Origin: an uncultured Gammaproteobacteria bacterium | GTDB lineage: Bacteria; Patescibacteriota; Microgenomatia; Levybacterales; UBA12049 | Direction of reading: 5' to 3' | NCBI GenBank assembly: GCA_964653195.1 | Contig: CAZZCX010000004.1 | Location: 173-64,172 of the forward strand | Length of the DNA: 64,000 nt | The notes under the pieces: model-generated | Told to the model about the DNA's origin: nothing | The model's database searches: none | Seen by the model: the letters and a program-made list of their open reading frames with translations, nothing else | Made by a program: the position numbers and the translations under genes | In this document: piece by piece, positions 3,961 to 58,922 of the stretch | Numbering within the stretch: the first letter of the stretch is position 1 | Layout of the letters: every line of letters starts with the position of its first letter

Positions 3961-4101
3961 AATTCACCTCCTCTCAATAATTAATTTATATTTAATTCTT
4001 AGCTATTGGAAAAACGATTATATATTTTATTTATTATTTAATAAATAATGAAGAGTTACAATAGCGTAAAGTGATCGGATTTTGTATACTTATGGGGCGT
4101 T

Positions 4102-5535: not shown

Positions 5536-7258
5536 AATACTCTTTCAGCATTCTCGTTGCGGTGAATTCATTTAAAATCAGCTCCCGTGCGTTTTTCATA
5601 TTCTCAAGCCATGCCCCAGGAATACCTTCTCTATTCTTGAAATAATATTCAGGAATAATATTATGCTCAAGAATCTCCATCAGGCTATCGGTAATTCTAT
5701 TACTATCAAGTATCCAGCCTATCTTATAAAGCTCTACTTCCGCTACCCATCCGTCTTTCGTGGTACAGGGCAATACTCCATTTAGACATGCTTTCATACC
5801 GCTTGTACCGCAAGCTTCAAAGCCGACAATAGGTGTATTGAGCCATACGTCTGCTCCACTTGTCATTATTTTCGCAAGATTGATATTGTAATCAGTAAGA
5901 TAAGTAATATATTCTCCCAATTCAGACTCCAGAAGTAATCTTATATCATTAAGCATTCCGGCACCTTCACTATCACTTTCATGGGCTGAGCCAGCTAGTA
6001 CTATACGCACAGGGCGTCTTGAATCCTGAACAAGTTTAAGTAGTTTTTCTTTATTCTGAAATAACGCCAAAGGTCTTTTATAGGGAACTATTCGTCTACC
6101 CCAACCCAACAATAAGTGATTCTCATCCCAAACTTTTCCTGTCTTCTCCTGAATAATATTCAAAAGAGTCCTTTTATTCTCCTGATGCCGCGTCCATAAA
6201 TTAATTACATTTTGATTATCAAAATTATATTTATCTATTAAAGCCATTTCCGAATTCTTAACTCTTAATTCTGAATTATGAATTCCTACTCTATCCCATG
6301 TATCTAAATGTATTCCATTAGTTACTGAAATCATAGGATGGTCTGGCCAAATTTCTTCAGCTTTTTTGGCATGGAGCTTACTTACAGCATTTATTCTTGA
6401 CGCCATGCGCATAGATAGTATAGTCATCGAAAAGATACTTGAATCCTTTACAAGTCCCAATGGAATTAATTCATTGACAGGTACTTGAAGTTGTGCTGAG
6501 TAATCTGAAAGTAGAGCTGAAACCATGTCATTATTGAAGGTATCATTTCCTGCTGCCAAAAGAGTATGGTTCGTAAAGACAATATGTCGTCTCGCACGGT
6601 CTAGCTCATCGTTATATTTTCCTTTGTACTCATTCATTTCATGATTTGCCACTTCAAATGCCAGAAGACCTGAATGGCCTTCATTCAGATGATATACACT
6701 TGGGTGAATCTTGAGAATTTCAAGCAATCTTAATCCGGCAATTCCCAATACAATTTGCTGCTTAAAGCGGGTCTCCTTATTTCCGACATATAGCCTGTCA
6801 TTTATACCACGGTCAAGCGGATCGTTTTCATCAATATCCGTATCCAGTAAAAATACTCTTACTGTTTTAATTTGCTTTTCGAAGGCTCTTACTTTCAATT
6901 GTCTTCCCTGCATAGGAATAGATATAATTACGGGCTGTTTATTTAAATCGACTACCGGTTTAAATCCAAAATCGGGAGGTGCAGATTTAGGCGGATGTTT
7001 AAGAAGTGTAGCGTCATTTACCAACTCATGATGAAAATACCCTTCTTCATAAAACATACCTATAGCGACCAAAGGAATTCCCTGATCCGCTGCTTCAAGA
7101 ATTGTATCTGCAGCTAAAACTCCTAGTCCGCCAGCATAGAGTGGGGAATTATTAATTAGTGCAAACTCTGCGCAGAAATATGCTATAGGGCGAATCTTCA
7201 GAAACTCATATTCTTTAGATTTTCTGAAGTCATCAAACCAATTCTCGTGCTGTTGCAT
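5456..7258 (-). CDS. glgP: Alpha-glucan (glycogen/maltodextrin) phosphorylase, GT35 short form
   Basis: N-terminal 'AYFCAEFALINNSPLYAGGLGVLAADTILEAADQGIPLVAIGMFY' is diagnostic of the GT35 phosphorylase family. Its 3' end overlaps malQ convergently by 80 nt. Confidence 0.8.
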   Translation of the reverse strand: MQQHENWFDDFRKSKEYEFLKIRPIAYFCAEFALINNSPLYAGGLGVLAADTILEAADQGIPLVAIGMFYEEGYFHHELVNDATLLKHPPKSAPPDFGFKPVVDLNKQPVIISIPMQGRQLKVRAFEKQIKTVRVFLLDTDIDENDPLDRGINDRLYVGNKETRFKQQIVLGIAGLRLLEILKIHPSVYHLNEGHSGLLAFEVANHEMNEYKGKYNDELDRARRHIVFTNHTLLAAGNDTFNNDMVSALLSDYSAQLQVPVNELIPLGLVKDSSIFSMTILSMRMASRINAVSKLHAKKAEEIWPDHPMISVTNGIHLDTWDRVGIHNSELRVKNSEMALIDKYNFDNQNVINLWTRHQENKRTLLNIIQEKTGKVWDENHLLLGWGRRIVPYKRPLALFQNKEKLLKLVQDSRRPVRIVLAGSAHESDSEGAGMLNDIRLLLESELGEYITYLTDYNINLAKIMTSGADVWLNTPIVGFEACGTSGMKACLNGVLPCTTKDGWVAEVELYKIGWILDSNRITDSLMEILEHNIIPEYYFKNREGIPGAWLENMKNARELILNEFTATRMLKEYFTQMYLPVLTELFETQLRQDDLSNPQ

Positions 7259-7306
7259 TATTTTAGTATAACAGGTTTTTGCATCAGTCTAAATGCTATA
7301 TTTCAT

Positions 7307-8911
7307 TTATATCAGCAAACTAGAGTACGCTCGATGCGAAATCGGACGGGTGGCTCGTTTTCTTTCCTCAGAAATATGCTTATACCATTTTTCATATTCC
7401 TTTGCTGCTTTCTCCCAGCTGAAATCACAACGTAAGCAATTCAAAATTAATTTCTTCCAGAGAAATTTTTGCTTATATATCGTAAGTGCCTCAATTATAC
7501 TTCCATAAAATGCCCACGAATCATTATTTGTAAAAGAAAAACCGTTTCCTGTACCTTTTACAGGATCGAAATCCTGGATACTGTCATTAAGGCCTCCAGT
7601 ACGACGAACGACGGGCACTGCTCCGTATCGCATAGCTTCCAACGCAACCAATCCACCAGGTTCATATGAACTTGGTATTAAAAATATATCAGCACCTGAG
7701 AATATCTTCCGCGGTAAACGAAAATCAGCTCTTAAATGTAAACCTAACTGTCTGGGATATAGTTTTTGTAATTCAACTAATTTGGTTCTATATGTATCAT
7801 CTCCACTGCCTAGAATTATCACTTGAAGATCAGGACGCTGCATTAATAAATTTGGTAAAACGTGAAGTAAAATATCAACTCCCTTTTGCCTCCATAGTCT
7901 ACCTGCAAAAGCTAAAAGAGGAGCATCAATATTTACAGGAAGTAAAAATAATTTTTGCAATTCAATTTTATTTATTTTTCTTGCTTTTTCAAAAGTCTTT
8001 TCTGTAAATCTTGCTTTAATAATCGGATCTGTAGAAGGATTAAATTCATCAGTATCAAGTCCGTTCAATATTCCTATAAGCTTGCCTTTAACTTTTTCTA
8101 AAGCATCATCCAATCCTTCAGCATATTCTGAAGTCAATACTTCAATTGCATGGGATGGACTTACTGTATTTATAGCATCAGCATAAAGTAAACCACGTCG
8201 CAATGCATTATGTTTTTGAAAACTTCTCGAGAGAATTGGCGATAAATCTGTAGTGCCATCATCAAAATCTTCTTTCTTTGCAAAACGGTAATCATAATTT
8301 CCCTGAAATGCGAAATTGTGTACTGTTAAAACAATCGCAGTCTTTGCGAAAATATGTCTGTATCTTTTATCACGACGTGCCATACCGATAAGATATGCTG
8401 TATGCCAATCGTTACAATGAATCACATCAGGCCACCATTTATCTTTATCGCCTTTATTATCTAAATACAGTTGATATAACCACTCTAAGCATCCTTTAGA
8501 TAACAATGCAAACCTAACATGATCATCCATATACCCGAATACGTTTGCACGCAACTCATAATATTCCCGATTTTCTAAAAAATATGCATGAATGCTGCGT
8601 TTTCTATTGATATACGTTTTGACATTGCAAATAAGATAATCCTTTCTATCTTGTTTCAATTGAATATCGGTTGCATTGTTTACTAAAGGTACCTTTAATC
8701 CCTTGATCGACAATTTCATTTTCCAGGATTTTCCATGTAAAGGATCAGAATCCATTTTCCCGTATTTTGGTGTAAAAATCCGTACATCATTTCCCATACG
8801 CGATAACATTCGAGGTAAAAAATACATGACTTGCGATAAACCACCAACGGAGACGAAAGGGGCTACTTCAGCGCATACAAACAAGATATTCACGCCTGTA
8901 TTGTAACACAA
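7307..8911 (-). CDS. glgA: Glycogen/starch synthase (GT5, ADP/UDP-glucose type)
   Basis: N-terminal 'ILFVCAEVAPFVSVGGLSQV' corresponds to the GlgA 'KTGGLADV' motif. C-terminal GT-B fold ('GGLNDSI'). Confidence 0.8.
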   Translation of the reverse strand: MCYNTGVNILFVCAEVAPFVSVGGLSQVMYFLPRMLSRMGNDVRIFTPKYGKMDSDPLHGKSWKMKLSIKGLKVPLVNNATDIQLKQDRKDYLICNVKTYINRKRSIHAYFLENREYYELRANVFGYMDDHVRFALLSKGCLEWLYQLYLDNKGDKDKWWPDVIHCNDWHTAYLIGMARRDKRYRHIFAKTAIVLTVHNFAFQGNYDYRFAKKEDFDDGTTDLSPILSRSFQKHNALRRGLLYADAINTVSPSHAIEVLTSEYAEGLDDALEKVKGKLIGILNGLDTDEFNPSTDPIIKARFTEKTFEKARKINKIELQKLFLLPVNIDAPLLAFAGRLWRQKGVDILLHVLPNLLMQRPDLQVIILGSGDDTYRTKLVELQKLYPRQLGLHLRADFRLPRKIFSGADIFLIPSSYEPGGLVALEAMRYGAVPVVRRTGGLNDSIQDFDPVKGTGNGFSFTNNDSWAFYGSIIEALTIYKQKFLWKKLILNCLRCDFSWEKAAKEYEKWYKHISEERKRATRPISHRAYSSLLI

Positions 8912-8971
8912 AACTAGCTCCAGTTGAGCACCAAATTAATAATTTTTTTTTGTAATTTATTTTTTAAGTTT

Positions 8972-10480
8972 CTAACCGAGACTTTTTCGAAGAATTGCAG
9001 CATCTTGTATCAATTTCGCAAGAGACTCACCGGTATCAATTTTTTTCACTATTTCTGATGTGATTAATAAATGCTTTTTCTCTTCTTTCGTTAGGGGAGC
9101 TACCTCTTCGCCTAAATATATTTCAACTTCTTTAATATCCTCTTCTATATCAGACCATACTTTATTTTCTTTTGCCAATATAGAAAGGTTTTTCTTGTTT
9201 AAATATCTACCCGCTCTCATAAGATCGGCTTTTATATTTATATAAAACTTTTCAAGCGTCGGAAGTAGACCTAAAGTTTTTGCTTTCTTTATCCCTCTGC
9301 CAGTGCCTATAAACTCTGGAGGAATACCTAGAGAATACAAAGCAGCAGTAAATCCAATTGCGCGAGGTAATTTTACTTTTCCTACGCCTCTTGAATATCC
9401 GAAAAGACCAATATGCTGAACCCGCTCTCGCCTTCTTGGTAGCATCGATGCTATAGTATTTATAAGCTCTGCTATCTCCTCAATAACGGGCGTATATTGA
9501 TTTTCAAATATTTCAACCATCAAGCGTATTTCTTTTTCTTCAGCTCCTGATACATCTAGTGCAGATTTCTGTGGTAACAGTTTCTCAAGATTCACTACAG
9601 CTTTTATTACATCTTTTTTTTCGTAGTCATAACGGAATCCGCTTTGAATAAGTGCAGTTCGAATACCTCTGTATTCATTTACAAATTCATTTATATTTAG
9701 AGGTGTGAGTCCGCCACGGAAAGGAAGTGAAGCAGAACCAATTACAGGATAAAGTTCTATATCTTCTCTTTCTGAATAATTCTTATATTTGGACAATGCT
9801 AGCTTGATGGCAAGTACTGTAGGTACGATTCCAGCATTTAATGCTGGATCTGAACGTGCTAAATAAGGCCTTATATAACTAGGTCTGAATTTAAATTTTT
9901 TCTTATGCATTTTTAAATATGTATCTAAAATCTTATCTGAATTCATTATCGTCTCGACATCTTCAAAAAGCGGTATCAACTCAATATGTCTTAAATTTCT
10001 ATCTCCCATTCGATATAACTGATGTTTTAGAGAAGCAATTTCCCTAAAGGCTTCTTGAACGGCGATCATTTCCCCAGCACTTGTGGTCATCGGTAGGATT
10101 ACTTCAAAAAGAGGTGGACTATAAAATCCATATTGACGGGCAATCATATCTGCACTAAGAATTCCCATAAAGGCACGTCCTATACGAAACTCTGTCTCAA
10201 CCTTTGGATTTGGCAGACGGAAAGTTAGAAATTTATCGTATCCTAATTGATGAGTCTTAAAAAATTCATAGTGAGTGCTTAAAAGCCTCTCCATTACTGA
10301 TTCATCAACCAGTTTTCCCTCCCAGTCCCATTTATATTCAGAAACTCCTAATTCAGAAAATGACAGAAAACACTCAAAAGTCTCGTGATTCGTACTTATA
10401 AATTCTTCAGTATGCCAATAAGGCTTGCCGGCGTGATCCGGATGCTGAGATATCATAGCTGCTGAAATTTTTCTAGTCAT
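8972..10480 (-). CDS. ppcA: Archaeal-type phosphoenolpyruvate carboxylase (PpcA family)
   Basis: 502 aa. N-terminus 'ISAAMISQHPDHAGKPYW', 'WDWEGKLVDE' and 'FLTFRLPNPKVE' match the hallmark motifs of archaeal-type PEPC (MSTQHPDN / WDAEGKDVD / LTYRLPNP). Confidence 0.8.
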   Translation of the reverse strand: MTRKISAAMISQHPDHAGKPYWHTEEFISTNHETFECFLSFSELGVSEYKWDWEGKLVDESVMERLLSTHYEFFKTHQLGYDKFLTFRLPNPKVETEFRIGRAFMGILSADMIARQYGFYSPPLFEVILPMTTSAGEMIAVQEAFREIASLKHQLYRMGDRNLRHIELIPLFEDVETIMNSDKILDTYLKMHKKKFKFRPSYIRPYLARSDPALNAGIVPTVLAIKLALSKYKNYSEREDIELYPVIGSASLPFRGGLTPLNINEFVNEYRGIRTALIQSGFRYDYEKKDVIKAVVNLEKLLPQKSALDVSGAEEKEIRLMVEIFENQYTPVIEEIAELINTIASMLPRRRERVQHIGLFGYSRGVGKVKLPRAIGFTAALYSLGIPPEFIGTGRGIKKAKTLGLLPTLEKFYINIKADLMRAGRYLNKKNLSILAKENKVWSDIEEDIKEVEIYLGEEVAPLTKEEKKHLLITSEIVKKIDTGESLAKLIQDAAILRKSLG

Positions 10481-41218: not shown

Positions 41219-43546
41219 ATGGGCCTGCCTTTTAAACTGCATCTCTTTAGAAAAACTCCTGAGGAAGGTTATTACCTTGCTTTAGTACTCCGTGATGAAA
41301 AAGTAGCTGCCTTAATATTCAAAGAACTGGAAGGAAAAATTACGATAGTAGCTAAAAGAGAAGAAACGCTTAAAGATACCCTTGAGAAAACTCCCCTTGA
41401 TGAACTTGTAACCATACTTGATAAAATAATCTCACATGTTGAGACTAGACTTCCGGCAGATATAGAGATAAAAGATACAGTCTTCGGTTTGAAAGATAGT
41501 TGGGTAAGTGAAAAAAAGATCAGTAAGGACTTCCTTACCAAGCTCAAACATATTTGTTCAGAATTAGATCTTAAGCCAATTGGTTTTATTGTGTTGCCTG
41601 AAGCTATAGCGCATCTTATAAAACAAGAAGAAGGCGCACCTGTGACCGCCCTAATTTCTGAAGTTGGTAAATTCGGAGTGACTGTAAGCTTATTTAAAGC
41701 AGGAAAACTAATCGAAACAAAGACAAAACCAATTGTCAGCACACCAATGCACGCTGTAGATGAAGTTTTAAAAGAATTTGAAAATGTGGAAATTCTCCCT
41801 TCCAGAATTATACTATTCCATGCAACTACTGAATTAGGCGATATTAATAAAGATGAATTAAGTCAGCAATTTATAGCACATAGCTGGAGTAAAAGTTTGC
41901 CTTTTTTACAAATTCCGCAAATATCGATACTGCCTCATGAGTTTGATGGTAAAGCAATTGTAGCGGGCGCAGCCACTCAGCTAGGCTTTGAATTCACCGG
42001 CTTACCTCAGGATTTAAACGAATCAGAAATAATTGATTTTGATCCAAAAAAAAGCAGAAGAATTAATAAACTTACAAATGCCGATCATGATCTAGAGATC
42101 GAAAAAAAATCTGATAAAACAACTTCTGAAAGTATAAACGCAAATGCTTTCGGATTTGTTCTAAATGAAGATATTACAACTATACCCAAACATGTAAAAG
42201 AGAATTCAATGCAAGCGATAAATAATTCAGAAACCGATTTTGAAGATAGAAACACACGAGTTGAGAAACGAAACGATTTCGCACTTAATGAGGTAATTGA
42301 GGAAAATAATGATGAAAATATATCTATAAAAAAATCAAAAGCAAATCCCCTTTTTCTTATAACTACTTTTTTTAGGAAACTTAAACCGCGGTCATCTACA
42401 ATAGCTAAAAAAAATTGGTTGTTTCTTATTCCACCAATTCTTATCCTGTTACTTATAGCATCCCTGCTCTTATATTTCTTTTCTTTAAAAGCTACTGTAA
42501 CACTTATTGTTTCTCCAAAAGATGTTGAAGAAACTCAACGGATAACCTTATCAACAAAATCACAAAATGATTTCACAAAAAATATAATTGCTGCAAAAGA
42601 GTTAACTGTAGCAATTGAAGGTAGCGCCGAAACAGAAACATCTGGCGAAAAAGAGGTAGGAGATAAAGCAAAAGGAACTATCACACTGTTTAACAGCGAT
42701 GAATCTAAAAAAACATTCAAGGAAGGTACAGAGATAGCATCAGAAAAAGGTTTAATTTTTGTTCTTGATAAAGAAACCAGTGTAGCTTCTGCTTCAGGCG
42801 ATATATTTACTGGTATAAAGTCTGGAACAGCACAAGCACCTGTGACAGCTTCAAAAATCGGTACAGAATATAACTTGCCGTCAAATTCAAAATTCAGTAT
42901 TCAGGGAACAGACGTGGTAGCTGCAAAAAACGAATCAGCATTTTCAGGAGGAACTAAGAAAAAAGTTACAGTTGTCACCCAAAAAGATGTAGATAAACTA
43001 GAAGAAGAGCTACCAAAGAGCTTAGAGGAAAAAGCGCGTACTGAACTAAAAAAGAAATTGAATGGTAATGAAGAACTACTTACAGGTTTTACAGATATTA
43101 CTCTATCTAAAACAACATTAGATAATGCAGTCGATAAAGAAGCAAAAACAGTAAAACTTACAGGTACTGTAAATTTTATATCTGTAGCCTATGATAAAGA
43201 TGATTTACTTCAATTTGCTGAAGAAAGTATAAAAGAAAGGTACACCAAGGAGGAACTTAATCGTGACAATATTGATACAAAACTAAGCGGTATCAAAGAT
43301 ACAAGTGAGACAGAACTGACTGCAGTCGCTGCCATTAACGCAGGCCTACTTCCTAAAATCGATATAGAAGATATGAAAACAAAACTTACTGGAAAATCTT
43401 TTACAGAAGTAAAAGAATTAGCAAGAGGTACATCGAGTCAAATAAAAGATGCTCAAATAACTCTTTCACCAAATCTTCCCTTTTTACCAGAAGTGCTTCC
43501 TAGAATTACAAAAAATATAGACATTATTGTCAATACAAGCCTTTAG
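41219..43546 (+). CDS. Large bitopic membrane protein of unknown function (~390-aa cytoplasmic N-domain, one TM, ~360-aa extracytoplasmic K/T/E-rich domain)
   Basis: Single strong TM helix 'WLFLIPPILILLLIASLLLYFFSL' near residue 400 and no recognisable catalytic motif. Followed by a sortase gene. Confidence 0.4.
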   Translation: MGLPFKLHLFRKTPEEGYYLALVLRDEKVAALIFKELEGKITIVAKREETLKDTLEKTPLDELVTILDKIISHVETRLPADIEIKDTVFGLKDSWVSEKKISKDFLTKLKHICSELDLKPIGFIVLPEAIAHLIKQEEGAPVTALISEVGKFGVTVSLFKAGKLIETKTKPIVSTPMHAVDEVLKEFENVEILPSRIILFHATTELGDINKDELSQQFIAHSWSKSLPFLQIPQISILPHEFDGKAIVAGAATQLGFEFTGLPQDLNESEIIDFDPKKSRRINKLTNADHDLEIEKKSDKTTSESINANAFGFVLNEDITTIPKHVKENSMQAINNSETDFEDRNTRVEKRNDFALNEVIEENNDENISIKKSKANPLFLITTFFRKLKPRSSTIAKKNWLFLIPPILILLLIASLLLYFFSLKATVTLIVSPKDVEETQRITLSTKSQNDFTKNIIAAKELTVAIEGSAETETSGEKEVGDKAKGTITLFNSDESKKTFKEGTEIASEKGLIFVLDKETSVASASGDIFTGIKSGTAQAPVTASKIGTEYNLPSNSKFSIQGTDVVAAKNESAFSGGTKKKVTVVTQKDVDKLEEELPKSLEEKARTELKKKLNGNEELLTGFTDITLSKTTLDNAVDKEAKTVKLTGTVNFISVAYDKDDLLQFAEESIKERYTKEELNRDNIDTKLSGIKDTSETELTAVAAINAGLLPKIDIEDMKTKLTGKSFTEVKELARGTSSQIKDAQITLSPNLPFLPEVLPRITKNIDIIVNTSL

Positions 43547-43609: not shown

Positions 43610-44338
43610 ATGAGATACATTTACAGGAAGAATAATAAATTTCAAATACGCACAGTTATTCGCTACGGAGGATTAATTATTTCAATTACGGGTTTCTTGT
43701 TTCTATTTTATATAATTTATCCTTTTTTGTCCTGGAAATTTTATTACGAGCCGGTCTTTGCAGCTGCTGATTTACAAACTCCCATACCAAAAACGACTGT
43801 ACTTTCCAAGGGAAATTTACAGACACTACTTGCTTCAGCTGTGGATTCTATAAATCTAGATTATACTGATGCGAAAAATTGGTTCCCTGACTATAAACCA
43901 GCATTTAAAAAAGTTAATGATCCGGGTATTATAACTACATTTAATATTTCAATTCCCAAATTAAGAATTAACTATGCAAATGTTTCAACTATTGATACCG
44001 ATTTGTCAAAACACTTAATACTTTATCCTGGTACAAGTATTCCTCCTGAAAAAGGTAATGCAGTAATCTTCGGACATTCTTCTATTCCCAGTTGGTTTAA
44101 TCCTAATAATTACCAGACGATTTTCGCAACACTTCATACTTTAAAAGTTGGAGACGAAATTCATACTACAGTAAATACTAAAGAATATAGATATATCGTA
44201 GAGTCTATTAGGATCACAACTCCTAACGATATGACTATATTTACTCAGAATACTGATAACAGCTATCTCACACTGCTCACATGCACACCTCCCGGTACCA
44301 CATGGAAAAGATTAATTATAAAAGCTAAAGCTAGTTAA
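43610..44338 (+). CDS. Sortase-family transpeptidase
   Basis: N-terminal TM anchor, 'IFGHSS' His region, catalytic 'TLLTCTPPG' (TLxTC) and a downstream Arg. Confidence 0.75.
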   Translation: MRYIYRKNNKFQIRTVIRYGGLIISITGFLFLFYIIYPFLSWKFYYEPVFAAADLQTPIPKTTVLSKGNLQTLLASAVDSINLDYTDAKNWFPDYKPAFKKVNDPGIITTFNISIPKLRINYANVSTIDTDLSKHLILYPGTSIPPEKGNAVIFGHSSIPSWFNPNNYQTIFATLHTLKVGDEIHTTVNTKEYRYIVESIRITTPNDMTIFTQNTDNSYLTLLTCTPPGTTWKRLIIKAKAS

Positions 44339-50497: not shown

Positions 50498-50720
50498 AGG
50501 CAGAGAAATGCTATAAGAACAGTATCATAATAACACTTAGTGGACTATGATACAAGTTACCCCAGCCACAATTAATCATTTACAAAATGATAAACTAATA
50601 CCTTAAAATAACTAATCGTCGTAAAAAAATAATGGTGTATTTAACGATTACAGATTGAGATACATTTACTGTTAATTAATTGAGAAGTAAATTAAATTAA
50701 AATTATATTGATTTCTTAAA

Positions 50721-51059
50721 CTACTCTTCAATGAAGCTATTGAGTAATGAGCTTATAAGGGATAAAACCAAACCAAATAAAATAGCCCAAATTATTCCGT
50801 CGATTGAAAACCCAGTAATCAAAGAGTCGGTCAATAAGATCATTAAGACATTTAAAACCAATGCAAAGAGACCAAAAGTTACTATACTAATTGGTAAAGT
50901 TAGAATAAAAAGAATTGGTTTTATAAAAGCGTTAACAACTCCTAAAACCAACGCAACTATTAACGCTGTTTTGAAAGAATCTATATGAACTCCAGTCAGA
51001 AGATATGAAGTGATGAAAACCGCAAAAGCTGAGATCAACCAATTTACCAAAAATCGCAT
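50721..51059 (-). CDS. DUF360 / phage-holin-4_2-family membrane protein
   Basis: 112 aa with 4 TM segments; 'WLISAFAVFITSYLLTGVHIDSFKTALIVALVLGVVNAFIKPIL' matches the DUF360 pattern. Confidence 0.6.
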   Translation of the reverse strand: MRFLVNWLISAFAVFITSYLLTGVHIDSFKTALIVALVLGVVNAFIKPILFILTLPISIVTFGLFALVLNVLMILLTDSLITGFSIDGIIWAILFGLVLSLISSLLNSFIEE

Positions 51060-51069
51060 AAATGGTTAT

Positions 51070-52797
51070 TTAGAACTCCTCACTTAAATTATCCAATCCG
51101 GAACCAGTCAACTGACTACCTTGAAGAACATTTTTATTTAAGATTTCATTTGCTGTCCCTTGTTGAAAATTGTTAGTGTTAACTATAGTATCTGCGTTGC
51201 TTCCTGTATAAGCTCCAGTACTCATTGGTGGAGCTTCAAATACTGGTGCTGCATCTTGATTTGCTGATGATGATACCGGTGTAACTTCTGGAGCTAATAC
51301 GCTTAATGGGTCAAAGCTGGTTACCGGTGCGACAGGTGATTGAGCAGCGCTTTGTCCATCTTGAGGTATCTGCTGGCCATAGTACAATGGCTGTGCTGCG
51401 GTTACCTGTGGATTATTATCTAGAGGTGCAGCATTCTGATTTATAGGATTTTTTGATGGATCACTTGTTGTGGTATCTGTTGCAGTTGGAGTCACAGCAC
51501 CTGTAGAAGCCGGATCAGAAGATACCACCTCGCTTTCACCTTTCGCAAACGCAAATGCATTTGTTTCTCCTTTATAATCAATTTTAATAGTGTCACCTGG
51601 CGTAAAATTTCTACCTATTATTTCAAGAGCAATCGGATTCTCTATGGAATTTTGAATTAAACGCCTGAGAGGCCTAGCTCCATACATTGGATCATATCCT
51701 TCTCGAGCAAGTTTTTCTAATGCTCTATCAGTAATAGACACAGTATATCCTTGCTCTTTTAACAACTTCGCTGTTTTTTCTATTCCCAGCTTTGCAATAC
51801 CGACCATGTCTTCTCGTCTTAATGGTTTGAATATAACAATATCGTCATACCTATTTAATAATTCAGGACGGAAGAATTTTCTTAATTCATTATTTACAAC
51901 ACTTGATAATTCTGCAAACTCCTTGGCATACTCTGAAGCTGTCTTTTGAGTTTTAGTGTCAGTATCCTTTAACTTTTCAGTAATTAACGCACTGCCGATA
52001 TTTGAGGTACATATTACAATCGTATTTTTAAAAGAAATAGTATTGCCTTTATTATCTGTTAGTCTCCCGTCTTCAAGAAGTTGTAAAAGGATATTAAAAA
52101 CATCAGGGTGCGCTTTCTCAACCTCATCAAGTAAGACTATAGAATATGGTTTAGCTCGAACAGCCTCTGTCAATTGCCCACCTTCTTCATAACCTACATA
52201 TCCGGGAGGAGCACCGATCAGCTTAGCAACTTCGTGCTTTTCCATATACTCGGACATATCAAGTCTGATCATCGCATCATCTCGACCAAATAATATCTCA
52301 GCCAGAGTTTTTGCAAGTTCGGTTTTTCCTGTACCTGATGGCCCAAGAAATATAAATGAGGCAATAGGGCGCTGACCGCTTGCAAGCCCTATCCTACCTC
52401 GTCTTACAGCTTCAGAAACTTTCAGCACTGCTTCCTCCTGGTCGATCAATCGCTTATGTATTCTTTTCTCAAGCACAAGCAATTTCGCGCTTTCGTCCTC
52501 TGTAAGTTTGGATATCGGAATACCTGTCCAGCTTGAAACTACATTTTCCACATCACGTTTCGTGACAGCATTTCCCTCCAACACTTCTTCTGCTTTATGC
52601 AAATCCTTGTCATCATTATTTAACTGTTGAGGATCAATATTAACAGCTTTATTTTGCTCATTTGGTCCAGTTTGCGCTGTAGGTGGAGTAGCATTTTGCC
52701 CACTTTGAGTTACATTATCCACCGGTGCCTGAATATTATCCGGTAAGGGAGAACCTTGAGCTACAGTATTATTATTTAATGGATTTGTATTGTTCAT
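51070..52797 (-). CDS. ClpB-like AAA+ chaperone, C-terminal half (low-complexity head, D2 ATPase, ~150-aa S/T/P/Q-rich tail)
   Basis: 'VSSWTGIP', Walker A 'FLGPSGTGKTELAKTLAEILFG', sensor 'GARPLRRLIQ'. The ClpB-like 'TSNIGSALITEKL' region lacks an IGF/VGF ClpP-docking loop. Its start overlaps the stop of the upstream ORF (ATGA). Confidence 0.75.
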   Translation of the reverse strand: MNNTNPLNNNTVAQGSPLPDNIQAPVDNVTQSGQNATPPTAQTGPNEQNKAVNIDPQQLNNDDKDLHKAEEVLEGNAVTKRDVENVVSSWTGIPISKLTEDESAKLLVLEKRIHKRLIDQEEAVLKVSEAVRRGRIGLASGQRPIASFIFLGPSGTGKTELAKTLAEILFGRDDAMIRLDMSEYMEKHEVAKLIGAPPGYVGYEEGGQLTEAVRAKPYSIVLLDEVEKAHPDVFNILLQLLEDGRLTDNKGNTISFKNTIVICTSNIGSALITEKLKDTDTKTQKTASEYAKEFAELSSVVNNELRKFFRPELLNRYDDIVIFKPLRREDMVGIAKLGIEKTAKLLKEQGYTVSITDRALEKLAREGYDPMYGARPLRRLIQNSIENPIALEIIGRNFTPGDTIKIDYKGETNAFAFAKGESEVVSSDPASTGAVTPTATDTTTSDPSKNPINQNAAPLDNNPQVTAAQPLYYGQQIPQDGQSAAQSPVAPVTSFDPLSVLAPEVTPVSSSANQDAAPVFEAPPMSTGAYTGSNADTIVNTNNFQQGTANEILNKNVLQGSQLTGSGLDNLSEEF

Positions 52798-54392
52798 GGT
52801 GTTGCGACTGAACCTGCTAGATTTGAATTGCCTTCGGGTAATGCACCGTTTGCAATTGAATTCTGCGACATATCTTGCGTATTTGTTTCTATATTTCCAG
52901 TTGTTTCATCGATTTTATCATTTACCTTACTATCTTCGTTTGTTTTTATTACTTGTACCAATTCTTTCACATCTGATTTCCCTCCGTCAATTCTGGGAAG
53001 GAAAGTTTCAGATCGTCCTAACTTCACCCATGCTGAAGCTTCATCAAGCAAATCTACTGCTTTATCTGGCAAATAACGTTCGCCAATATATTTTTTCGAT
53101 AATTTAACTGCTGCCTCAATTGTTTTATCACTAATCGTAACGTTATGAAACCTTTCATACTTTGGACGCAGTACCTTAAGCATCTCGATTGCTGCTTCTT
53201 CGCTCGGCTCTTCAGCTACTACAGGCTGAAAGCGTCTTTCAAGTGCTTTATCTTTTTCAAAATTCTTCCTATATTCACTTGTAGTAGTAGCTCCTATTAT
53301 TTGCAGTTGGCCACGTGCCAAATGAGGTTTTATAATATTTGAAGCATTCATTGAATCTCCATCTCCGCCCGCGCCCATTAAGATATGTATCTCATCAATA
53401 AAAAGTATAATTTGGCCAGCTGACGCCATCGATTCCTGAATTACACTTCTAAGTCTTTCTTCAAATTCTCCCCTATGTGATGCGCCTGCAACGATAGAAG
53501 ATAGATCTAGTTGAATAATTCGTTTATTCGCAAGCTCTTTCGGTGATTTACCAGTAACTATCTCTTCCGCCAACCCTTCAATAATAGCTGTTTTACCTAC
53601 ACCAGCCTCACCAATAATTATCGGATTATTTTTAGTTCTTCTTAATAAAATATGTACTAGTCTATCGATTTCTTTATCTCTACCTGCAATCGGATCGAGC
53701 TTCCCTTCACGCGCCTGTTCTGTCAAATCAATTCCGAATCTATCTAATACTGACTTTTTTCCGTATGAAAAACCATGAGCTTTAGATAACTTAGTTTCAA
53801 CTTCTTCCTTGTTTATACCCTGTTGCTTTAATTGTCCAGCTGTAGTGAGAGTATCATTGAAAAGCGAAAGCAATATGTCTTCAGGGGTGACAAAAGAAGA
53901 TTCGCGCGTCTTAGCATCTCTATAAGACTGTTCGAAAACCTGTTTTGATTTATCGCTTAATGTAGGTTGCCCTGTAAATGTACCCACCACTTCTTTTGTC
54001 TGTATTTCTTTAGTTAATTTTGCTGGATCTACTGAAAACTCTTCAAGTAATTTAAATAAGTCTGCATCATATAAAAGTCCAATTAGTAGCTGATCTGGCT
54101 CAATTAACTGTTGACGTATTCTTTTAGTTTCTTCCTGTGCATGCTGTAATACTTGAGTAGAACGCTGATCAAGATGTGATAATGCTGATAAGTTCTGTTT
54201 TAAATTTGGATTAATACGTGATACCGCTGGACTGGTAGTTTTTGCATCTCCCTGTGAGGCAACTCCCTGAGGAGTAACTGCAGCTTGTTGATTAACATTA
54301 TTTATAGACTGACTACTTACTGGTACACTCATCTGTGAACTCGCTTCAGGTTGCAACGGTTGTTTTTTTTGATTGAAAAGATTACCAAACAT
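52794..54392 (-). CDS. ClpB-like AAA+ chaperone, N-terminal half (Q/S-rich head, Clp_N domain, D1 ATPase, no M-domain)
   Basis: Clp_N repeat 'LLIGLLYDADL...ILLSLF', Walker A 'IIIGEAGVGKTAIIEGLAEEI', 'LPDKAVDLLDEA'. Ends in a low-complexity N/Q/T linker where a coiled-coil M-domain would normally sit. Confidence 0.75.
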   Translation of the reverse strand: MFGNLFNQKKQPLQPEASSQMSVPVSSQSINNVNQQAAVTPQGVASQGDAKTTSPAVSRINPNLKQNLSALSHLDQRSTQVLQHAQEETKRIRQQLIEPDQLLIGLLYDADLFKLLEEFSVDPAKLTKEIQTKEVVGTFTGQPTLSDKSKQVFEQSYRDAKTRESSFVTPEDILLSLFNDTLTTAGQLKQQGINKEEVETKLSKAHGFSYGKKSVLDRFGIDLTEQAREGKLDPIAGRDKEIDRLVHILLRRTKNNPIIIGEAGVGKTAIIEGLAEEIVTGKSPKELANKRIIQLDLSSIVAGASHRGEFEERLRSVIQESMASAGQIILFIDEIHILMGAGGDGDSMNASNIIKPHLARGQLQIIGATTTSEYRKNFEKDKALERRFQPVVAEEPSEEAAIEMLKVLRPKYERFHNVTISDKTIEAAVKLSKKYIGERYLPDKAVDLLDEASAWVKLGRSETFLPRIDGGKSDVKELVQVIKTNEDSKVNDKIDETTGNIETNTQDMSQNSIANGALPEGNSNLAGSVATP

Positions 54393-54501
54393 ATTCTAAT
54401 AAATTATAAATAGAAATTAGTAACAGAATAGTAATTCTAATCTTGTTACTTTTTACTGTTACTATCTTATTTTGTCTATTTTTTAACCAATCGTCAATAG
54501 C

Positions 54502-57500
54502 TCAATTATTCGATTGTGTATTTTCATCATTTTCTATACTTTGTGCTAACTTGCTCTGATTCTCGGGAGCTTTCTCGACAGCTCGATCAACAAGAACTTT
54601 CTCACCTTCTTCTGATTGAGATTCTAGTAAAGAATTAGCTGCATGCAGTTTAGCATCTAGATATGACGTAATTTCATCTAAGCTAAATCCACCCAGCAAG
54701 ACAAAAGGTAATAAGAGAGATACTTGACGCAGACCTTCTTGCACTTTCAAATTATCATGTGAAGACAAAAGCATAAGAGTGGAACGAATTGTATCACTCT
54801 CTTTATTCAGCCAAGATCTTTTGTCCATCGTTTCAACTGGAGAATTTGATTTTCTATAATAATCTTCCCACATACCTCTAACTGCCTCATAATCTTGGAT
54901 ATTTACTGTCTGTAAAGGATTTGACGCTGGCAATTCGATACTCTGCACCCCTACTGTATTTATATTCTCATCTTTAGGTGCTAACTCCCAAATTTTTACA
55001 GCCAGTATATTACCTGCTTCCGCTTCATTTTTTACTTCTTCCTTAAGATCTGCTATCTGTTCTAAAGGAGTATCAGCAGTAATCATAAGAATCCGGTCTG
55101 CTAAAATATTTTGTTTCTTTACTTCATTTGCTAACATCTCAGAAACCGCTTTAATGCTTTCAATATCTTTTACTGCATATAAATCTGGATGTGATAATTC
55201 CATAAGATATCTATGAAAAGCGTCCATTGCACTTTCATGATTATCATTTTTCTGATTAACTGCATTACTTGCAGAAAGAATTAATCCAGCATGGACATCA
55301 CCCTTTCCGCTTAGTTCTGAAAGATTATCTTTTATCGAATTTATTCTCGTTTTTTCATTTACATCAGTTACGACTTCAGGATTTGCGATTCTTGCCAAAG
55401 TCTCCTTAACTTTTATAACTTCTTCTTGAGCTATTGGATCATTCGATAGGCTAGACATTTCAAATCTAACAACATCTTTGATTGTCGGAATTGGAAGGTT
55501 TGTGAGAGTAAGTAGTTCTGTGTTTACTTTCACTGAAGGCGATGAGCTAAGTGGACTTTCCGCACTGGTATTATCATCTGATTCATCATCAATTGTCGCA
55601 GATTGAGTCATGCTAGTTTTTGTAGTGGTATGTGTCTCAACTGTAACAAGAGTATCCTCCTCAGTCCCTATTTCATCAATCACTGATTTTCCAGCTTCTT
55701 GCTTGGCTTTCAAATAAGATACTATCTCATCCTGACTGAATCCCCCAAGAAGTAAGAAAGGTAACACATTACCTACTTCTTCCATTCCTTGCTGAATTTT
55801 TTCATTGTCCCCTGACGTCAGAAGAGAAAGTATATTATCAATATCTCTTACATCATCACTGATCCATTCTTTTCTACTACTTAAACCTTCCGGGACTTCC
55901 ATATCTTTATAATTCTCTTGCCACATCTTTCGTACCGCTTCATAATCCTCAAGGCTTACTGTTTGGATCCTATTAGTTGAAGGCGTGACTATACCATCCG
56001 TAATGCCTCCTTCTTCTGAAGCAAAAAGTCCTAGCACATCATCTGCTAATGGCTCACCTTTAGTTTTTGCATCTAAGAGCTGAGTTTTTACTAACTCCAT
56101 CTCTTTTGTATTTACTGGCGCTAAAGAGTTTGCATCTTCCTGAGAGGTGCCTTGCATTTTAGTTAACATAGAGGCAGCAAACTGGTTTCCCTGACTTTGC
56201 GCCAAAATAAGTTTGTCTTTTACTTTTTCATACTTTTCCTTTACTGCTGTACTTGTAATTGAGGTAGGATTGGCAAGCTGCTGCATTACTTTTTGAGTAG
56301 TTGATGCATCAATTCTTCCTATTGCAGTTGTAAGAATAGTTGATGCTTCGTGATTGCCTTGGAGAGTTGCTTCGATCAGCTTTTCTTTTAGATCATGTAT
56401 TTCGTTTGAAGTTGAAGTTTCTTTCGTCGAGAGAATTGAAGTTGCCAATGTGTTTCCCTTCTCACTTTCTTTTACCAACGAATTATGAAGCTCAGAAATC
56501 CGTTCTCTATCGCTACCCATTGCTGATGCTGGATTTGCGATTTCTTTCAATACATTCTTTAACACCGACTCATGTTCTTTGGTAAATGAAGTAGCGACAA
56601 GAGAGGTAGATACATTATTTCCAGTGATACTTTCCCTGGTCAATTGATTCTTAATATTTTGAAGTTCACGTACTGTTGTATTTTCTTTTGCTGCAAGAAT
56701 AGTTGTCGCTAAAGTATTGCCCTTCTCGCTCTCTTTTACTAAACTATCTCGGAGCATGGTCATTCTTTCACGATCAACACCTGCAGTAACTGATTGTGGA
56801 TTTGAAATATTTGTTAATGTCTTTTTAAGATTTTTGATTTGATTTATATTTTGATTTGTTACATTAGAAATATTACTTGCAATATTAACCGCTGACAGTA
56901 TAGAACTAGCTACAGTATTTCCAGAAGTACTTTCTTTAATTAGGCGATCTTTAAGTTGAATGAATTTTTCACGTTCAATTTCATTTTGGATCGTCGAAGG
57001 ATTAGCTATTTGCGCTAAAGTCTGATAAGTTTTTGAAATATTGCTAGAATCGCGATTTGATATCAAATCTTTTTCGTAAGTTGCAATATCTCGTATCGTA
57101 GGAAGTGAGATATTGGTAGCTGTAAGTAATTGATTATGAACACTAGCAACTGTAGATGCTTGAGGTCTGGTAATTGGAATTTCTCTCGCAACGCCTATAG
57201 GCATTGCTTTAGGTAATTGCATTGCATCTCCTATAGGTCCTTCCTTAATAACTGGTATATTTTTTGCATCTGAATACTTGGCAAAAGGCAGCTGTTTAGC
57301 TAACCCTGTACCGGCAGACGGAGGAAGAGGCACGGGTGCAGGTGGAGCTTTGTTTAAAAGCAAATAGCTAGTGTTTATTAACTTCTGCATTGCAGGGCTT
57401 TCTTCAAATGAAAAGTTATTCAGATAATCAAGAAATATCTGAAGTAAGATAAATGGCAATAATATTACGACCCAAAGCATTATAAGAGCCACAACATAAA

Positions 57501-58527
57501 GCGCGAATGTATCTGGAGTATTAAGATTATTATCTGCAGTTACTATTTGCCCAGGACCTCCAAGTAAAACATTTGTCGCAGTAGGATAAACGAATGACGT
57601 ACCGACATTTTTGAAATCAAATATCAAAGGCAGCCTGGGTGACTTCCAAATAGATACTAGGCCTGAAAGAAATATCGTAAAAAGAGGCGCATAGAGTAGC
57701 CAACGGAAAAATTCACCGATCCAAATCTTTGCCGTATTGCGTACGGGATAATAAAGTAAAAGTATCGGAAAAACTGGTGAGAGAACTATGAAAAACCAAA
57801 GTATAATTTTTCTTATAATCAAAACACCGGTCATTGCGTAATAAGTTACTGCGGTAAGCCGAGCAAGTAAAAGATTTACAAAAACGGATTCATCAAAAAA
57901 TGGATGAACTTTTCTAAGACCTCTAAAATATTCATAATCCCAACCTACATATAATAAATCCTGGGCGCTAATAAGTCTTCTTGGTGTTCCAGGCTGAGTT
58001 AAAAAGAATCCCTGTATGACATCAACTGTAGTGTAGATGATCTGAATTAAAGAATAAGAAAGAGTCACTAAAAGAACTACAGCAATAAACCTAGGTAGAA
58101 ATCGCTTCAAAGTAAGACTTTTTCCTCTGGTAGCCATGAGAACAAAAGCCGTTATAAGTACAATTAGCGCAAAGAAAGCATAAACGATATTGCGAATAGT
58201 GATCCAAAAACCTATTAGAGGATTCTCGTTATTGCTGCATATTCTGGTATTGGTTGAATTTGTCGTATCAGTACTCGGTGGACGAATGATATTTCCACTT
58301 GCATCATACTTAACATAACAAGACCATTCATAATTCTGGAGTGTCCAATTGAGAAATTGAACGGCTCTGGCTGCTGTTTTACCGACGAAATTAACTTCAG
58401 GATCCTCTGAATATGGTACTGACGGTGAAGGAAACGGTATATCATCTGCATATACAACATTTACACTATTTACGAAAAAGGCTAAACCTAATATTAAGTA
58501 AAAAATTAAGGGCAGAATTTTTTTCAT
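54502..58527 (-). CDS. Giant (1341-aa) secreted/polytopic membrane protein with long repetitive C-terminal domain; VirB6/TrbL-like topology (hypothesis)
   Basis: Signal peptide (…NSVNVVYA), ~90-aa Cys-containing ectodomain, about 6 TM helices with a large loop (residues ~110-370). At least seven ~45-aa repeats 'ANPxS..RE...L...L.KES..GN..A..IL' and a ~110-aa domain duplicated twice ('...DYEAVR.MW...LLLGGFS.DEI.SYL.AK'). Confidence 0.5.
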   Translation of the reverse strand: MKKILPLIFYLILGLAFFVNSVNVVYADDIPFPSPSVPYSEDPEVNFVGKTAARAVQFLNWTLQNYEWSCYVKYDASGNIIRPPSTDTTNSTNTRICSNNENPLIGFWITIRNIVYAFFALIVLITAFVLMATRGKSLTLKRFLPRFIAVVLLVTLSYSLIQIIYTTVDVIQGFFLTQPGTPRRLISAQDLLYVGWDYEYFRGLRKVHPFFDESVFVNLLLARLTAVTYYAMTGVLIIRKIILWFFIVLSPVFPILLLYYPVRNTAKIWIGEFFRWLLYAPLFTIFLSGLVSIWKSPRLPLIFDFKNVGTSFVYPTATNVLLGGPGQIVTADNNLNTPDTFALYVVALIMLWVVILLPFILLQIFLDYLNNFSFEESPAMQKLINTSYLLLNKAPPAPVPLPPSAGTGLAKQLPFAKYSDAKNIPVIKEGPIGDAMQLPKAMPIGVAREIPITRPQASTVASVHNQLLTATNISLPTIRDIATYEKDLISNRDSSNISKTYQTLAQIANPSTIQNEIEREKFIQLKDRLIKESTSGNTVASSILSAVNIASNISNVTNQNINQIKNLKKTLTNISNPQSVTAGVDRERMTMLRDSLVKESEKGNTLATTILAAKENTTVRELQNIKNQLTRESITGNNVSTSLVATSFTKEHESVLKNVLKEIANPASAMGSDRERISELHNSLVKESEKGNTLATSILSTKETSTSNEIHDLKEKLIEATLQGNHEASTILTTAIGRIDASTTQKVMQQLANPTSITSTAVKEKYEKVKDKLILAQSQGNQFAASMLTKMQGTSQEDANSLAPVNTKEMELVKTQLLDAKTKGEPLADDVLGLFASEEGGITDGIVTPSTNRIQTVSLEDYEAVRKMWQENYKDMEVPEGLSSRKEWISDDVRDIDNILSLLTSGDNEKIQQGMEEVGNVLPFLLLGGFSQDEIVSYLKAKQEAGKSVIDEIGTEEDTLVTVETHTTTKTSMTQSATIDDESDDNTSAESPLSSSPSVKVNTELLTLTNLPIPTIKDVVRFEMSSLSNDPIAQEEVIKVKETLARIANPEVVTDVNEKTRINSIKDNLSELSGKGDVHAGLILSASNAVNQKNDNHESAMDAFHRYLMELSHPDLYAVKDIESIKAVSEMLANEVKKQNILADRILMITADTPLEQIADLKEEVKNEAEAGNILAVKIWELAPKDENINTVGVQSIELPASNPLQTVNIQDYEAVRGMWEDYYRKSNSPVETMDKRSWLNKESDTIRSTLMLLSSHDNLKVQEGLRQVSLLLPFVLLGGFSLDEITSYLDAKLHAANSLLESQSEEGEKVLVDRAVEKAPENQSKLAQSIENDENTQSNN

Positions 58528-58538
58528 GGTAATTATGT

Positions 58539-58922
58539 TTATCCGAAACCAGGTATATGCAATATATCAACAAGTATTACTTCGACGAATAAGTATCCGA
58601 ATATGGCAAGAAGCAATCCTGCTAATGCATAGCCAATAATATTTTTCCCGTCATTAAGTATCTTCGGATTACCATGAGAGACCAATATCTGATAGCTTCC
58701 AAAAATAATCATTAATACTGCAAAGCCTCCTATTATGCCAAGACCATATTTATAGTACTGACTGACAAAGACATTTACATCGGTACGCACACACCCGACG
58801 TCAGTTTCTATACAGCCAGGATCCAGCGCAGGTGAAGGAGTAATCTGAGCATGGACAGGTGTTAAAAAAGGAAAAATTAATAAAAAGCAAATAAAAAAAA
58901 CAACTCCAAAAAGTCTTACCAT
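58539..58922 (-). CDS. Small secreted two-TM protein, VirB2/TrbC-pilin-like topology (hypothesis)
   Basis: 127 aa: signal peptide with AxA-type site 'PVHA-QI', Cys pair 'CIETDVGC', then two hydrophobic helices (GLGIIGGFAVLMIIFGSYQILV; IGYALAGLLLAIFGYLFVEVILV) separated by a short polar loop. Confidence 0.4.
   Translation of the reverse strand: MVRLFGVVFFICFLLIFPFLTPVHAQITPSPALDPGCIETDVGCVRTDVNVFVSQYYKYGLGIIGGFAVLMIIFGSYQILVSHGNPKILNDGKNIIGYALAGLLLAIFGYLFVEVILVDILHIPGFG

Follow-up and report, generated by a model that had tools for sequence, protein, structure and literature searches.

Tandem AAA+ unfoldases (ClpA/B/C, Hsp104, p97 and NSF) have, to our knowledge, always been described with both of their rings on one polypeptide chain. 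A locus within a 64-kb stretch of DNA from an uncultured bacterium, assigned by GTDB to the Levybacterales of the Patescibacteriota (assembly GCA_964653195.1, contig CAZZCX010000004.1), raises the question of whether the two rings can be encoded apart. In this stretch, the whole of which we call the window and whose positions serve as our coordinates, two overlapping open reading frames (ORFs), here termed the clp N-half and the clp C-half, encode the first (D1) and the second (D2) ring module of what resembles a single ClpB-like protein without the coiled-coil middle domain (M-domain). An earlier note on this DNA had proposed either a genuine two-piece Hsp100 lacking the M-domain or a frameshift, authentic or sequencing-derived. 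The first of these alternatives is strongly supported by repeat assemblies, split relatives, remodelled junctions and ratios of nonsynonymous to synonymous substitution (dN/dS) of ~0.01. We put at about 0.72 the probability of a fuller reading, namely that the locus is an evolutionarily maintained two-gene Hsp100 whose halves are translationally coupled and assemble non-covalently as a two-ring unfoldase or disaggregase, the assembly and the activity being what we infer.

ORF calls and a reading of the junction established that the two genes exist with the ATGA overlap that had been described (Table 1). At the junction (...gca aca cca TGA / ATG AAC...) the ATG of the C-half begins 1 nt ahead of the TGA of the N-half, so that the frame of the C-half relative to the N-half is -1 (=+2) and not +1 as had been claimed. 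Pfam, NCBIfam and alignments to structures in the PDB agree with the earlier assignment of Clp_N and D1 to the first ORF and of a ClpB-type D2 to the second: Pfam matches are Clp_N (residues 85-131), AAA (258-389) and AAA_lid_9 (397-488) in the N-half, and AAA_2 (143-320) and ClpB_D2-small (326-406) in the C-half. The D1 motifs GEAGVGKT, ILFIDEIH and ALERRFQ and the D2 motifs GPSGTGKT, GAPPGYVG, IVLLDEVEKA and GARPLRR are all intact. The pair therefore has the two modules by which class I Hsp100/Clp proteins are defined, that is, D1 (AAA clade, AAA_lid_9) and D2 (AAA_2, D2-small), whose Walker A/B motifs, sensors and Arg residues are intact; the single chain that also belongs to the definition is absent, D1 and D2 being separated by a stop codon and a separate ATG both in the window and in each of the 10 related loci or genomes whose junction we read. 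In AlphaFold2 models built from alignments of 112-113 sequences the Clp_N, D1 and D2 folds were confident, and nothing helical was predicted beyond the final D1 helix (443-461). The predicted local distance difference test score (pLDDT) was <50 for residues 1-60 and 464-531 of the N-half and for residues 1-74 and 431-575 of the C-half (348/1107 residues), and 52-68% of the residues in these segments are Q, N, S, T, P, G or A, as expected of the low-complexity head, linker and tail noted before. Tandem Repeats Finder detected no DNA-level repeats in 50500-58600, and the low-complexity segments are thus not microsatellite-like.

A sequencing or assembly frameshift, in which a 1-nt indel in a low-complexity linker has broken a single-chain gene, would explain why the break falls in a low-complexity region and why the ORFs lie in different frames with a 4-nt overlap, as a single indel would give. 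However, the identical 532+575-aa pair with the same overlap is present in three more independent assemblies (Logan SRR14932608, ENA ERZ27275274 and JGI 3300007584), which come from different samples and pipelines. The four closest GTDB species genomes are likewise split, with the halves in different frames (L004, 87% identity; L005, 75%; L006, 73%; L037, named Candidatus Levyibacteriota, 75%), as are loci L059-L061, and ~30 more distant Levybacteria/Patescibacteria loci (<=65% identity) are fused. Among protein clusters we found 18 further N-half-only clusters (P0002-P0019; 471-568 aa, 67-81% identity) and ~23 C-half-only clusters (P0121-P0143), many of which pair on the same contigs (equal sizes: 16987, 43492, 13333, 21752, 23130, 14710, 225713, 29507, 25793 and 42508, among others); neither half was seen without the other at any locus lying inside a contig. 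Two apparent N-half-only proteins, P0058 (490 aa) and P0105 (531 aa), were rejected as truncated fused genes, since both run into the start of D2 (...VVSAWTGIP...).

The junctions themselves differ from one relative to the next. The ATGA overlap is common to the window, L004, L005, L060 and L061; the junction is TAA+2 nt+ATG in L037, TAA+5 nt+ATG in L006 and TAA+7 nt+ATG in L059, where the C-half is in the +1 frame, and the P0012 locus has a 1-nt gap. A second split group comprises L056-L058, from which come C-halves that begin MQDP..PNN (P0153, P0154, P0158 and P0162; hereafter the MQ group or clade); there a 552/566-aa N-half is followed by the C-half, with a junction of TAA+3 nt in the same frame in L056 and of TAG+4 nt in the +1 frame in L057. 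In all 10 loci or genomes read, the ATG lies -4 to +7 nt from the stop, and the C-half is in frame -1, +1 or 0 relative to the N-half. The start of the C-half, in contrast to the junction, is kept at the protein level: in the clade of the window (the MN clade) C-halves begin Met-Asn/Gly-Asp/Asn (MNDTN..., MNDKN..., MGDKN...), and across both split groups the N-terminus M[NQG]D... is conserved. Relatives at 65-87% identity that are all split at differing junctions, including an in-frame TAA (L056) and TAA or TAG followed by 2-7 nt, a conserved ATG with its MND/MQD N-terminus, and the failure of any single indel to restore a fused frame in L006, L037, L056 and L059, where real stops intervene, leave a frameshift artefact with practically no probability. 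The split is confirmed as real and is not an artefact, and the sequencing-derived frameshift of the earlier note falls away.

The same junctions bear on programmed recoding, by which a -1 frameshift or stop readthrough would yield one fused polypeptide after all. The C-half is in the -1 frame in 5/7 of the MN-clade loci examined first, and in L056 the in-frame TAA lies just one codon before the ATG and could in principle be bridged by readthrough. But the relative frame varies, being mostly -1, +1 in L059 and L057, and 0 in L056, and the shared -1 relation of several loci is explained by inheritance of an ancestral ATGA, whose TGA is still in frame 1-2 codons past the newer TAA in L006 and L037. 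In L037, moreover, both frames are open for only ~22 nt and contain no X XXY YYZ slippery heptamer, and an ATG followed by Asn/Gln-Asp is retained, as would be expected for a true initiation site. We consider recoding very improbable.

Both cores are under extreme purifying selection. Between the window and L004 the ClpN+D1 core shows 97% amino-acid identity at a proportion of synonymous differences (pS) of 0.72, with a dN/dS of 0.008, and the dN/dS of the D2 core is 0.016. In three more distant comparisons synonymous sites were saturated and the cores were 85-91% identical, and none of the four comparisons revealed an indel in the 388+337 core codons. The heads and tails evolve much faster (dN/dS 0.2-0.6). 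Patescibacteria genomes are reduced, and broken genes might be expected there; together with the ~31% of residues that are low-complexity or disordered, this could suggest a decaying pseudogene heading for loss. Such decay is hard to reconcile with the dN/dS values and the absence of core indels, with catalytic motifs that are all intact, and with the persistence of the split across ~20 diverged lineages, and we give it next to no chance. Because the split is conserved, the junctions vary and the cores are constrained, three explanations are excluded or very unlikely: a frameshift introduced by sequencing, a pseudogene of recent origin and a conserved site of recoding.

We examined how often the split arose by constructing neighbour-joining trees, with 100 bootstraps, from the D2 core and from the ClpN+D1 core. 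The MN group was recovered with bootstraps of 94 (D2) and 56 (ClpN+D1) and the MQ group with 93 and 100, respectively, and an exclusive MN+MQ clade appeared in 0/100 bootstraps on both cores. Fused proteins with a minimal linker (P0146, P0151, P0152 and P0021) interleave with the split groups and share with them the rare states GPSGTGKT and T273. A single origin of both groups, which the shared M[NQ]D..P.NN start and GPSGTGKT might have indicated, was rejected as less parsimonious, because fused P0146, P0151 and P0152, with their 39-aa linker, share these states and MN+MQ monophyly had no bootstrap support; one split would need re-fusions that exactly restored the 39-residue linker, i.e. more events. 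Two independent splits are therefore probable, with the caveat that neighbour-joining trees alone are not decisive.

Is the split connected to the missing M-domain? The absence of the M-domain itself is supported by the AlphaFold2 models, in which disorder follows helix 443-461, and by the NCBIfam ClpB model TIGR03346, which covers the N-half over model positions 3-445 and the C-half over 506-852 and leaves 446-505 uncovered. In the PDB search, N-half residues 95-491 aligned to E. coli ClpB 27-438 and C-half residues 75-409 to E. coli ClpB 528-849 (5.7e-113, the best C-half PDB match), so that the body of the E. coli ClpB M-domain, ~89 residues (439-527), has no counterpart in the pair. A weak, low-complexity alignment to ClpC 410-444 falls in a region predicted to be disordered. 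The fused relatives also lack the M-domain: in 89 of them DKA(V/I)D, which closes the D1 lid, and WTGIP, with which D2 opens, are separated by a median of 39 residues (maximum 75-80). In some members low-complexity insertions at one point lengthen this connector to 56-80 residues, and the split clades have a combined connector of ~150 residues or more, with the gene boundary inside it. Alignments across the family thus indicate that the Levybacteria Clp proteins as a whole lack the M-domain, independently of the split and not as its result. Hence the split and the missing M-domain are both real, but they are not linked. Nor are orthologues uniformly single-chain proteins with an M-domain, since the split persists in close relatives and M-domain absence is family-wide.

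The family likewise lacks the loop by which Clp unfoldases dock onto ClpP. As had been claimed for the window, the region between TSNIG and FRPELLNR in D2 contains no [ILVM]G[FLM] tripeptide, and none was found in the docking loop of any fused member checked. The family has canonical forms of Walker A and B, the Arg fingers, sensor 2 and the D2 GYVG pore loop. Taken together, the sequence comparisons describe a family that combines ClpA topology with ClpB/ClpC-like sequence and has neither an M-domain nor an xGF ClpP loop, and that falls outside ClpB, ClpA, ClpC and ClpV by their membership tests. More than 105 of 120 members begin M[LFI]GNLF followed by Q/K, and members carry a disordered head and a disordered C-tail with an FDPL or PDFxPPF-like motif. 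The N-terminal M[LFI]GNLF with its ~60-residue disordered linker resembles a tethered short linear motif.

Comparison with individual Hsp100 proteins gives the following picture. ClpB/Hsp104 is the top named family for both halves (TIGR03346, 415.1 + 476.4 bits), but the sum of 891 is below the cutoff of 1232. Like ClpB/Hsp104, the pair has Clp_N, two AAA+ modules, ClpB_D2-small and a GYVG D2 pore loop; like ClpB, it lacks a ClpP-docking loop, having a ClpB-like helix-short loop-helix in D2; and the clp genes of its relatives are linked to the dnaK operon, as we take clpB to be linked to dnaK in Thermus thermophilus. It departs from ClpB in the His of its D1 pore loop, in its long disordered head and tail and in being encoded as two polypeptides. 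ClpA shares the topology of the family, an N-domain followed by a D1 that leads straight into D2 with no M-domain between them. This direct join is found in fused family members, the connector of E. coli ClpA from DKA(I/V)D to the pre-D2 segment presumably spanning ~39 residues as theirs does, whereas in the window the connector has expanded and is interrupted (ClpA 411 is aligned with N-half residue 458, and ClpA 421 with C-half residue 78). ClpA differs in its IGL ClpP-docking tripeptide, of which the pair has no equivalent, and is less similar overall: the halves score 359.9 + 334.8 bits against TIGR02639 (cutoff 993), lower than their similarity to ClpB and ClpC, and the C-half PDB E-value is 1e-65 for ClpA versus 1e-113 for ClpB. 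ClpC, which in Firmicutes and Actinobacteria partners ClpP and is activated by adaptors, gives the best N-half PDB match (S. aureus ClpC, 9.5e-101; B. subtilis ClpC, ~1e-100) and is a close second for the C-half (3e-110), with a D2 insertion of similar length; the half-size M-domain of ClpC, which is the docking site for MecA and McsB, and its VGF loop are missing from the pair, which has the polar TDTKTQKT in place of the latter. ClpV/TssH (TIGR03345) gave 382.3 + 317.5 bits against a cutoff of 885, and there are no type VI secretion system (T6SS) genes nearby, the neighbours being pilin-like and VirB6-like; ClpG/K NCBIfam scores were also below cutoff.

How might such a pair work? On the reading we favour, the first gene would supply the substrate-binding Clp_N domain with the D1 ring module and the second gene the D2 ring module. 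The halves would be co-transcribed, and termination-reinitiation would couple their translation, giving roughly equal amounts in the same place. Indeed, they have the geometry of a coupled operon pair, lying on the same strand with a stop-to-start distance of -4 to +7 nt, and a consensus scan found no promoter-like gap and no minus-strand terminator between them. Six D1 subunits would stack on six D2 subunits in a non-covalent two-tiered hexamer, through whose central pore substrate would be threaded and unfolded, driven mainly by the canonical D2 motor. The short, ClpA-like D1-D2 connector apparently tolerates low-complexity insertions; in two lineages it would have expanded and then gained a stop and a start. 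Because the family has no M-domain and no ClpP loop, the machine would not be switched on by DnaK via the ClpB route and could not feed ClpP. It would most likely be a stand-alone unfoldase or disaggregase, with any link to Hsp70 being regulatory, through its location in the dnaK operon, or made through motifs in the disordered head and tail.

Assembly in trans is plausible because there is a laboratory precedent. In an engineered split T. thermophilus ClpB (Beinker, Schlee, Auvula and Reinstein 2005, J Biol Chem 280:37965, as cited in passages of PMC4239642 and PMC3940203), NBD1(-M) and NBD2 were expressed separately, and the NBD2 construct began at residue 520. The C-half aligns to T. thermophilus ClpB 520-840, its folded part (from residue 77) meeting residue 520. 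In both cases the ring modules are separate polypeptides; the two differ in that, as far as those passages describe it, the engineered split is a laboratory construct whose N-fragment keeps the M-domain and which works with DnaK, whereas the split in the window is natural, conserved and without an M-domain.

Several observations weigh against this reading or parts of it. The D1 pore-loop Tyr of AG(T/A)KYRGEFE (ClpC/ClpB) is replaced by His in 117/120 family members, and likewise in L056 and L057, and D1 may therefore grip substrate differently or weakly. There is no convincing Shine-Dalgarno sequence at either start and none that is conserved before the C-half across loci, so that translational coupling is argued from the geometry. 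In the second split group the distance of D1 to its nearest fused relative is 0.41, versus 0.15 for D2, a possible sign that the halves have evolved in part independently. In addition, the conserved adjacency to pilin-like and VirB6-like genes described below could point to a role beyond general disaggregation. The unusual D1 pore loop and the faster evolution of D1 than of D2 in the MQ group are also what one might expect had the halves become subfunctionalised, with separate single-ring hexamers, D2 acting as a Skd3-like disaggregase and D1 as a holder or adaptor, and the genes remaining neighbours for co-regulation only. Single-ring relatives of ClpB D2 are active disaggregases (Skd3, according to passages of PMC7343390), and isolated ClpB NBD1-M is described in part of PMC4239642 as an active, oligomerising ATPase. 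Human CLPB/Skd3 similarly has a D2-type AAA+ module after a non-AAA N-terminal region, and CLPB chains match the C-half at ~1e-56; but in Skd3 the N-terminal region carries ankyrin repeats and there is no D1 gene as a partner, and the C-half always lies directly downstream of a D1 gene. Moreover, the halves are always adjacent and in the same order, with a tight stop/start spacing that favours stoichiometric co-production, a half on its own was not seen inside any contig, and neither core is less conserved than in fused relatives. Subfunctionalisation consequently seems to us an unlikely alternative to a two-ring machine, though the strongest of the rivals.

The neighbourhood of the clp genes is itself conserved. 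The window otherwise holds genes that are ordinary for a Patescibacteria chromosome (SecA, GroEL, SerRS, AlaRS, LepA, MurJ, FtsK, glycogen/sugar metabolism and sortase), and neither clpP nor dnaK was found in its 64 kb. Directly upstream of the N-half lies a gene for a polytopic membrane protein of 1341 aa, which itself has no Pfam, NCBIfam or PDB match and which we assign as TrbL/VirB6-like because its homologues match PF04610 (TrbL; 18/42 homologues, a few of them named 'type IV secretion system protein'). Its C-terminal helical-repeat module occurs twice: residues 455-734 of the L056 protein (3919-6255) align both to its residues 656-950 and to its residues 999-1301. A TrbL-like gene lies directly upstream of clp on the same strand in ~31 fused or split loci, L056 among them, and this conserved adjacency suggests that the TrbL-like protein is associated with clp. 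Before the TrbL-like gene there is a gene for a protein with a signal peptide and two transmembrane helices that resembles type IV secretion system (T4SS) pilins. PF18895 (T4SS_pilin) matches the L056 homologue (3528-3908) at 5.9e-5 and the L060 homologue (36-329) weakly, and tblastn found the pilin-like gene in 18 loci. L006 and L037 have no TrbL-like gene, and there the pilin-like gene directly precedes the clp N-half.

In at least nine fused loci the gene order is dnaK, pilin-like, TrbL-like, clp, ..., dnaJ, and in split L056 hrcA-grpE-dnaK-dnaJ are followed by the pilin-like gene, the TrbL-like gene, clpN and clpC. The pilin/TrbL-like/clp cluster lies in or beside a heat-shock operon in L013, L014, L017, L026, L033, L034, L035, L054, L055 and L056. 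This association with the Hsp70 operon speaks for a function as a chaperone, as far as gene order can indicate one. Genes downstream differ between the groups: the MN clade has a holin_4_2-like gene and FtsK, the MQ clade nusA-infB; the position of the holin_4_2-family gene is kept in L004, L005, L006, L037 and L059 but not in the MQ clade. Because clp clusters with a VirB2-like pilin and a VirB6/TrbL-like gene inside the dnaK operon, one can also envisage an undescribed, Patescibacteria-specific class of Hsp100 whose rings have been repeatedly separated, marked by the lack of M-domain and ClpP loop, the D1 His, an N-terminal MLGNLF peptide and disordered arms with short motifs. It would be a Clp-type motor dedicated to the assembly, extraction or recycling of an envelope or pilus-like structure and not a general disaggregase, by analogy with ClpV or ClpB acting on T6SS sheaths. 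We regard this proposal as speculative and rather doubtful.

Table 1. Features of the clp locus in the window. Residue numbers refer to the half named.
Feature	Residues	Position in window	Strand	Description and evidence
clp N-half gene		52794..54392	minus	532 aa; ORF, Pfam, NCBIfam, PDB alignment to ClpC/ClpB, AlphaFold2, 18-sequence split-clade alignment
N-half N-terminal peptide MFGNLF	1-6	54375-54392	minus	
N-half disordered head	1-60	54392-54213	minus	Q/S-rich
N-half Clp_N domain	61-205	54212-53778	minus	
N-half AAA+ D1	215-461	53750-53010	minus	large and small subdomains
D1 pore loop AGASHRGEFE	302-311	53460..53489	minus	alignment to ClpC
N-half disordered tail	464-532	53003-52797	minus	
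Stop/start overlap ATGA		52794..52797	minus	4 nt; N-half TGA overlaps C-half ATG
clp C-half gene		51070..52797	minus	575 aa; ORF, Pfam, NCBIfam, ClpB alignments, AlphaFold2
C-half disordered head	1-74	52797-52576	minus	N/Q/P-rich
C-half AAA+ D2	75-430	52575-51508	minus	large and small subdomains
D2 loop TDTKTQKT at the ClpP-docking position	279-286	51940..51963	minus	short, polar, between two helices (AlphaFold2)
C-half disordered tail	431-575	51507-51073	minus	S/T/P/A-rich; contains FDPL; C-terminus LSEEF
Phage_holin_4_2-family membrane protein		50721-51059	minus	112 aa; 10 nt downstream of C-half
Intergenic region upstream of N-half, possible promoter		54393..54501	minus	sigma-70-like TTGACG-17-CAAAAT at 54497-54469
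TrbL/VirB6-like polytopic membrane protein		54502..58527	minus	1341 aa; directly upstream of N-half; PF04610 in homologues
T4SS-pilin-like (VirB2-type) gene		58539..58922	minus	127 aa; upstream of TrbL-like gene; PF18895 E 4.8e-4, below gathering score

The promoter-like hexamers in the intergenic region are to be read against a consensus scan that returned 39 sites, versus 30±5.6 expected from shuffles, and thus no enrichment; terminators were at chance level. No match to the CIRCE/HrcA operator (TTAGCACTC-N9-GAGTGCTAA, <=3 mismatches) was found in the window. Between the hexamers and the N-half start, at 54419-54463 (minus), there is an 8-bp inverted repeat, AGTAACAG...CTGTTACT, with a second copy of AGTAACA, which may be an operator.

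Within the disordered segments, the N-half tail of the split clade (52797-53003, minus) contains the conserved islands GRSETFLPRI.GGK....ELVEVIKT and SIAxGALP, G516 being invariant. The FDPL motif of the C-half tail, at residues ~495-498, coincides with a small bump in pLDDT, and the closest relatives share an acidic-hydrophobic C-half C-terminus, L(S/N)EE(F/V). We considered and rejected N-half residues 470-484 (GGKSDVKELVQVIKT) as a duplicate of the pre-D2 segment (...VTKRDVENVVSS...) that would dock in trans, given that the two resemble each other over too short a stretch, that the MQ group lacks the resemblance and that the residues fall in a region predicted to be disordered.

Other genes were noted in passing. 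In L059 a second Clp paralogue of 798 aa (7119-9515), of which no equivalent was seen in the window, lies just downstream of the split pair; it has a hydrophobic N-terminus and appears to be membrane-anchored, its D1 Walker A/B motifs are degenerate (GDPGSGRE, YIPELQ), as is its D2 pore loop (GAPPGEGE versus GYVG). Near the split clp of the MQ group, L056 (16157-17293) and L057 (11270-12418) have a gene for a protein of 378-382 aa with AAA and Lon_lid matches and no match to a Lon protease domain, which appears to encode a Lon-like ATPase without the protease. In the window, a 775-aa protein of uncertain annotation (41219-43546, plus strand; weak Baseplate_J match, E 5.9e-5) is encoded directly upstream of the sortase gene (43610-44338, plus strand).

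What this system is made of and how it probably works are familiar, and a precedent has been engineered; a natural, recurrent and strongly selected split between D1 and D2 is unusual. So is the loss of both partner-coupling elements in an Hsp100 of the dnaK operon: in every ClpB or Hsp104 studied of which we are aware, the M-domain is the Hsp70 docking and control element. (Note that ClpB is generally a stress factor and not an essential gene, as distinct from the 'essential proteostasis factor' of the earlier note.) In the open-access literature that we searched, neither a naturally split Hsp100 nor a Patescibacteria Hsp100 family without the M-domain is described, and nothing relevant came up on naturally split AAA+ proteins in general or on Clp proteins of Patescibacteria, ClpB and ClpP included, absence there not being proof. 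Pipelines annotate the halves as 'ClpA', 'ClpC', 'MoxR-like' or 'DNA polymerase III delta prime', and split clp pairs may be thrown out as frameshifted pseudogenes.

Communication between the rings is an active question for tandem AAA+ unfoldases, and the natural split offers a ready-made system in which to ask whether allostery between the rings depends in vivo on their being covalently joined. It would also let each ring be purified separately from a native source, and let one ask what holds the rings together. For the Patescibacteria, whose reduced genomes keep a ClpB-like motor of the dnaK operon without its M-domain, the implication is that coupling to Hsp70 would either be achieved in another way, for example through motifs in the disordered arms, or that the machine would be autonomous.

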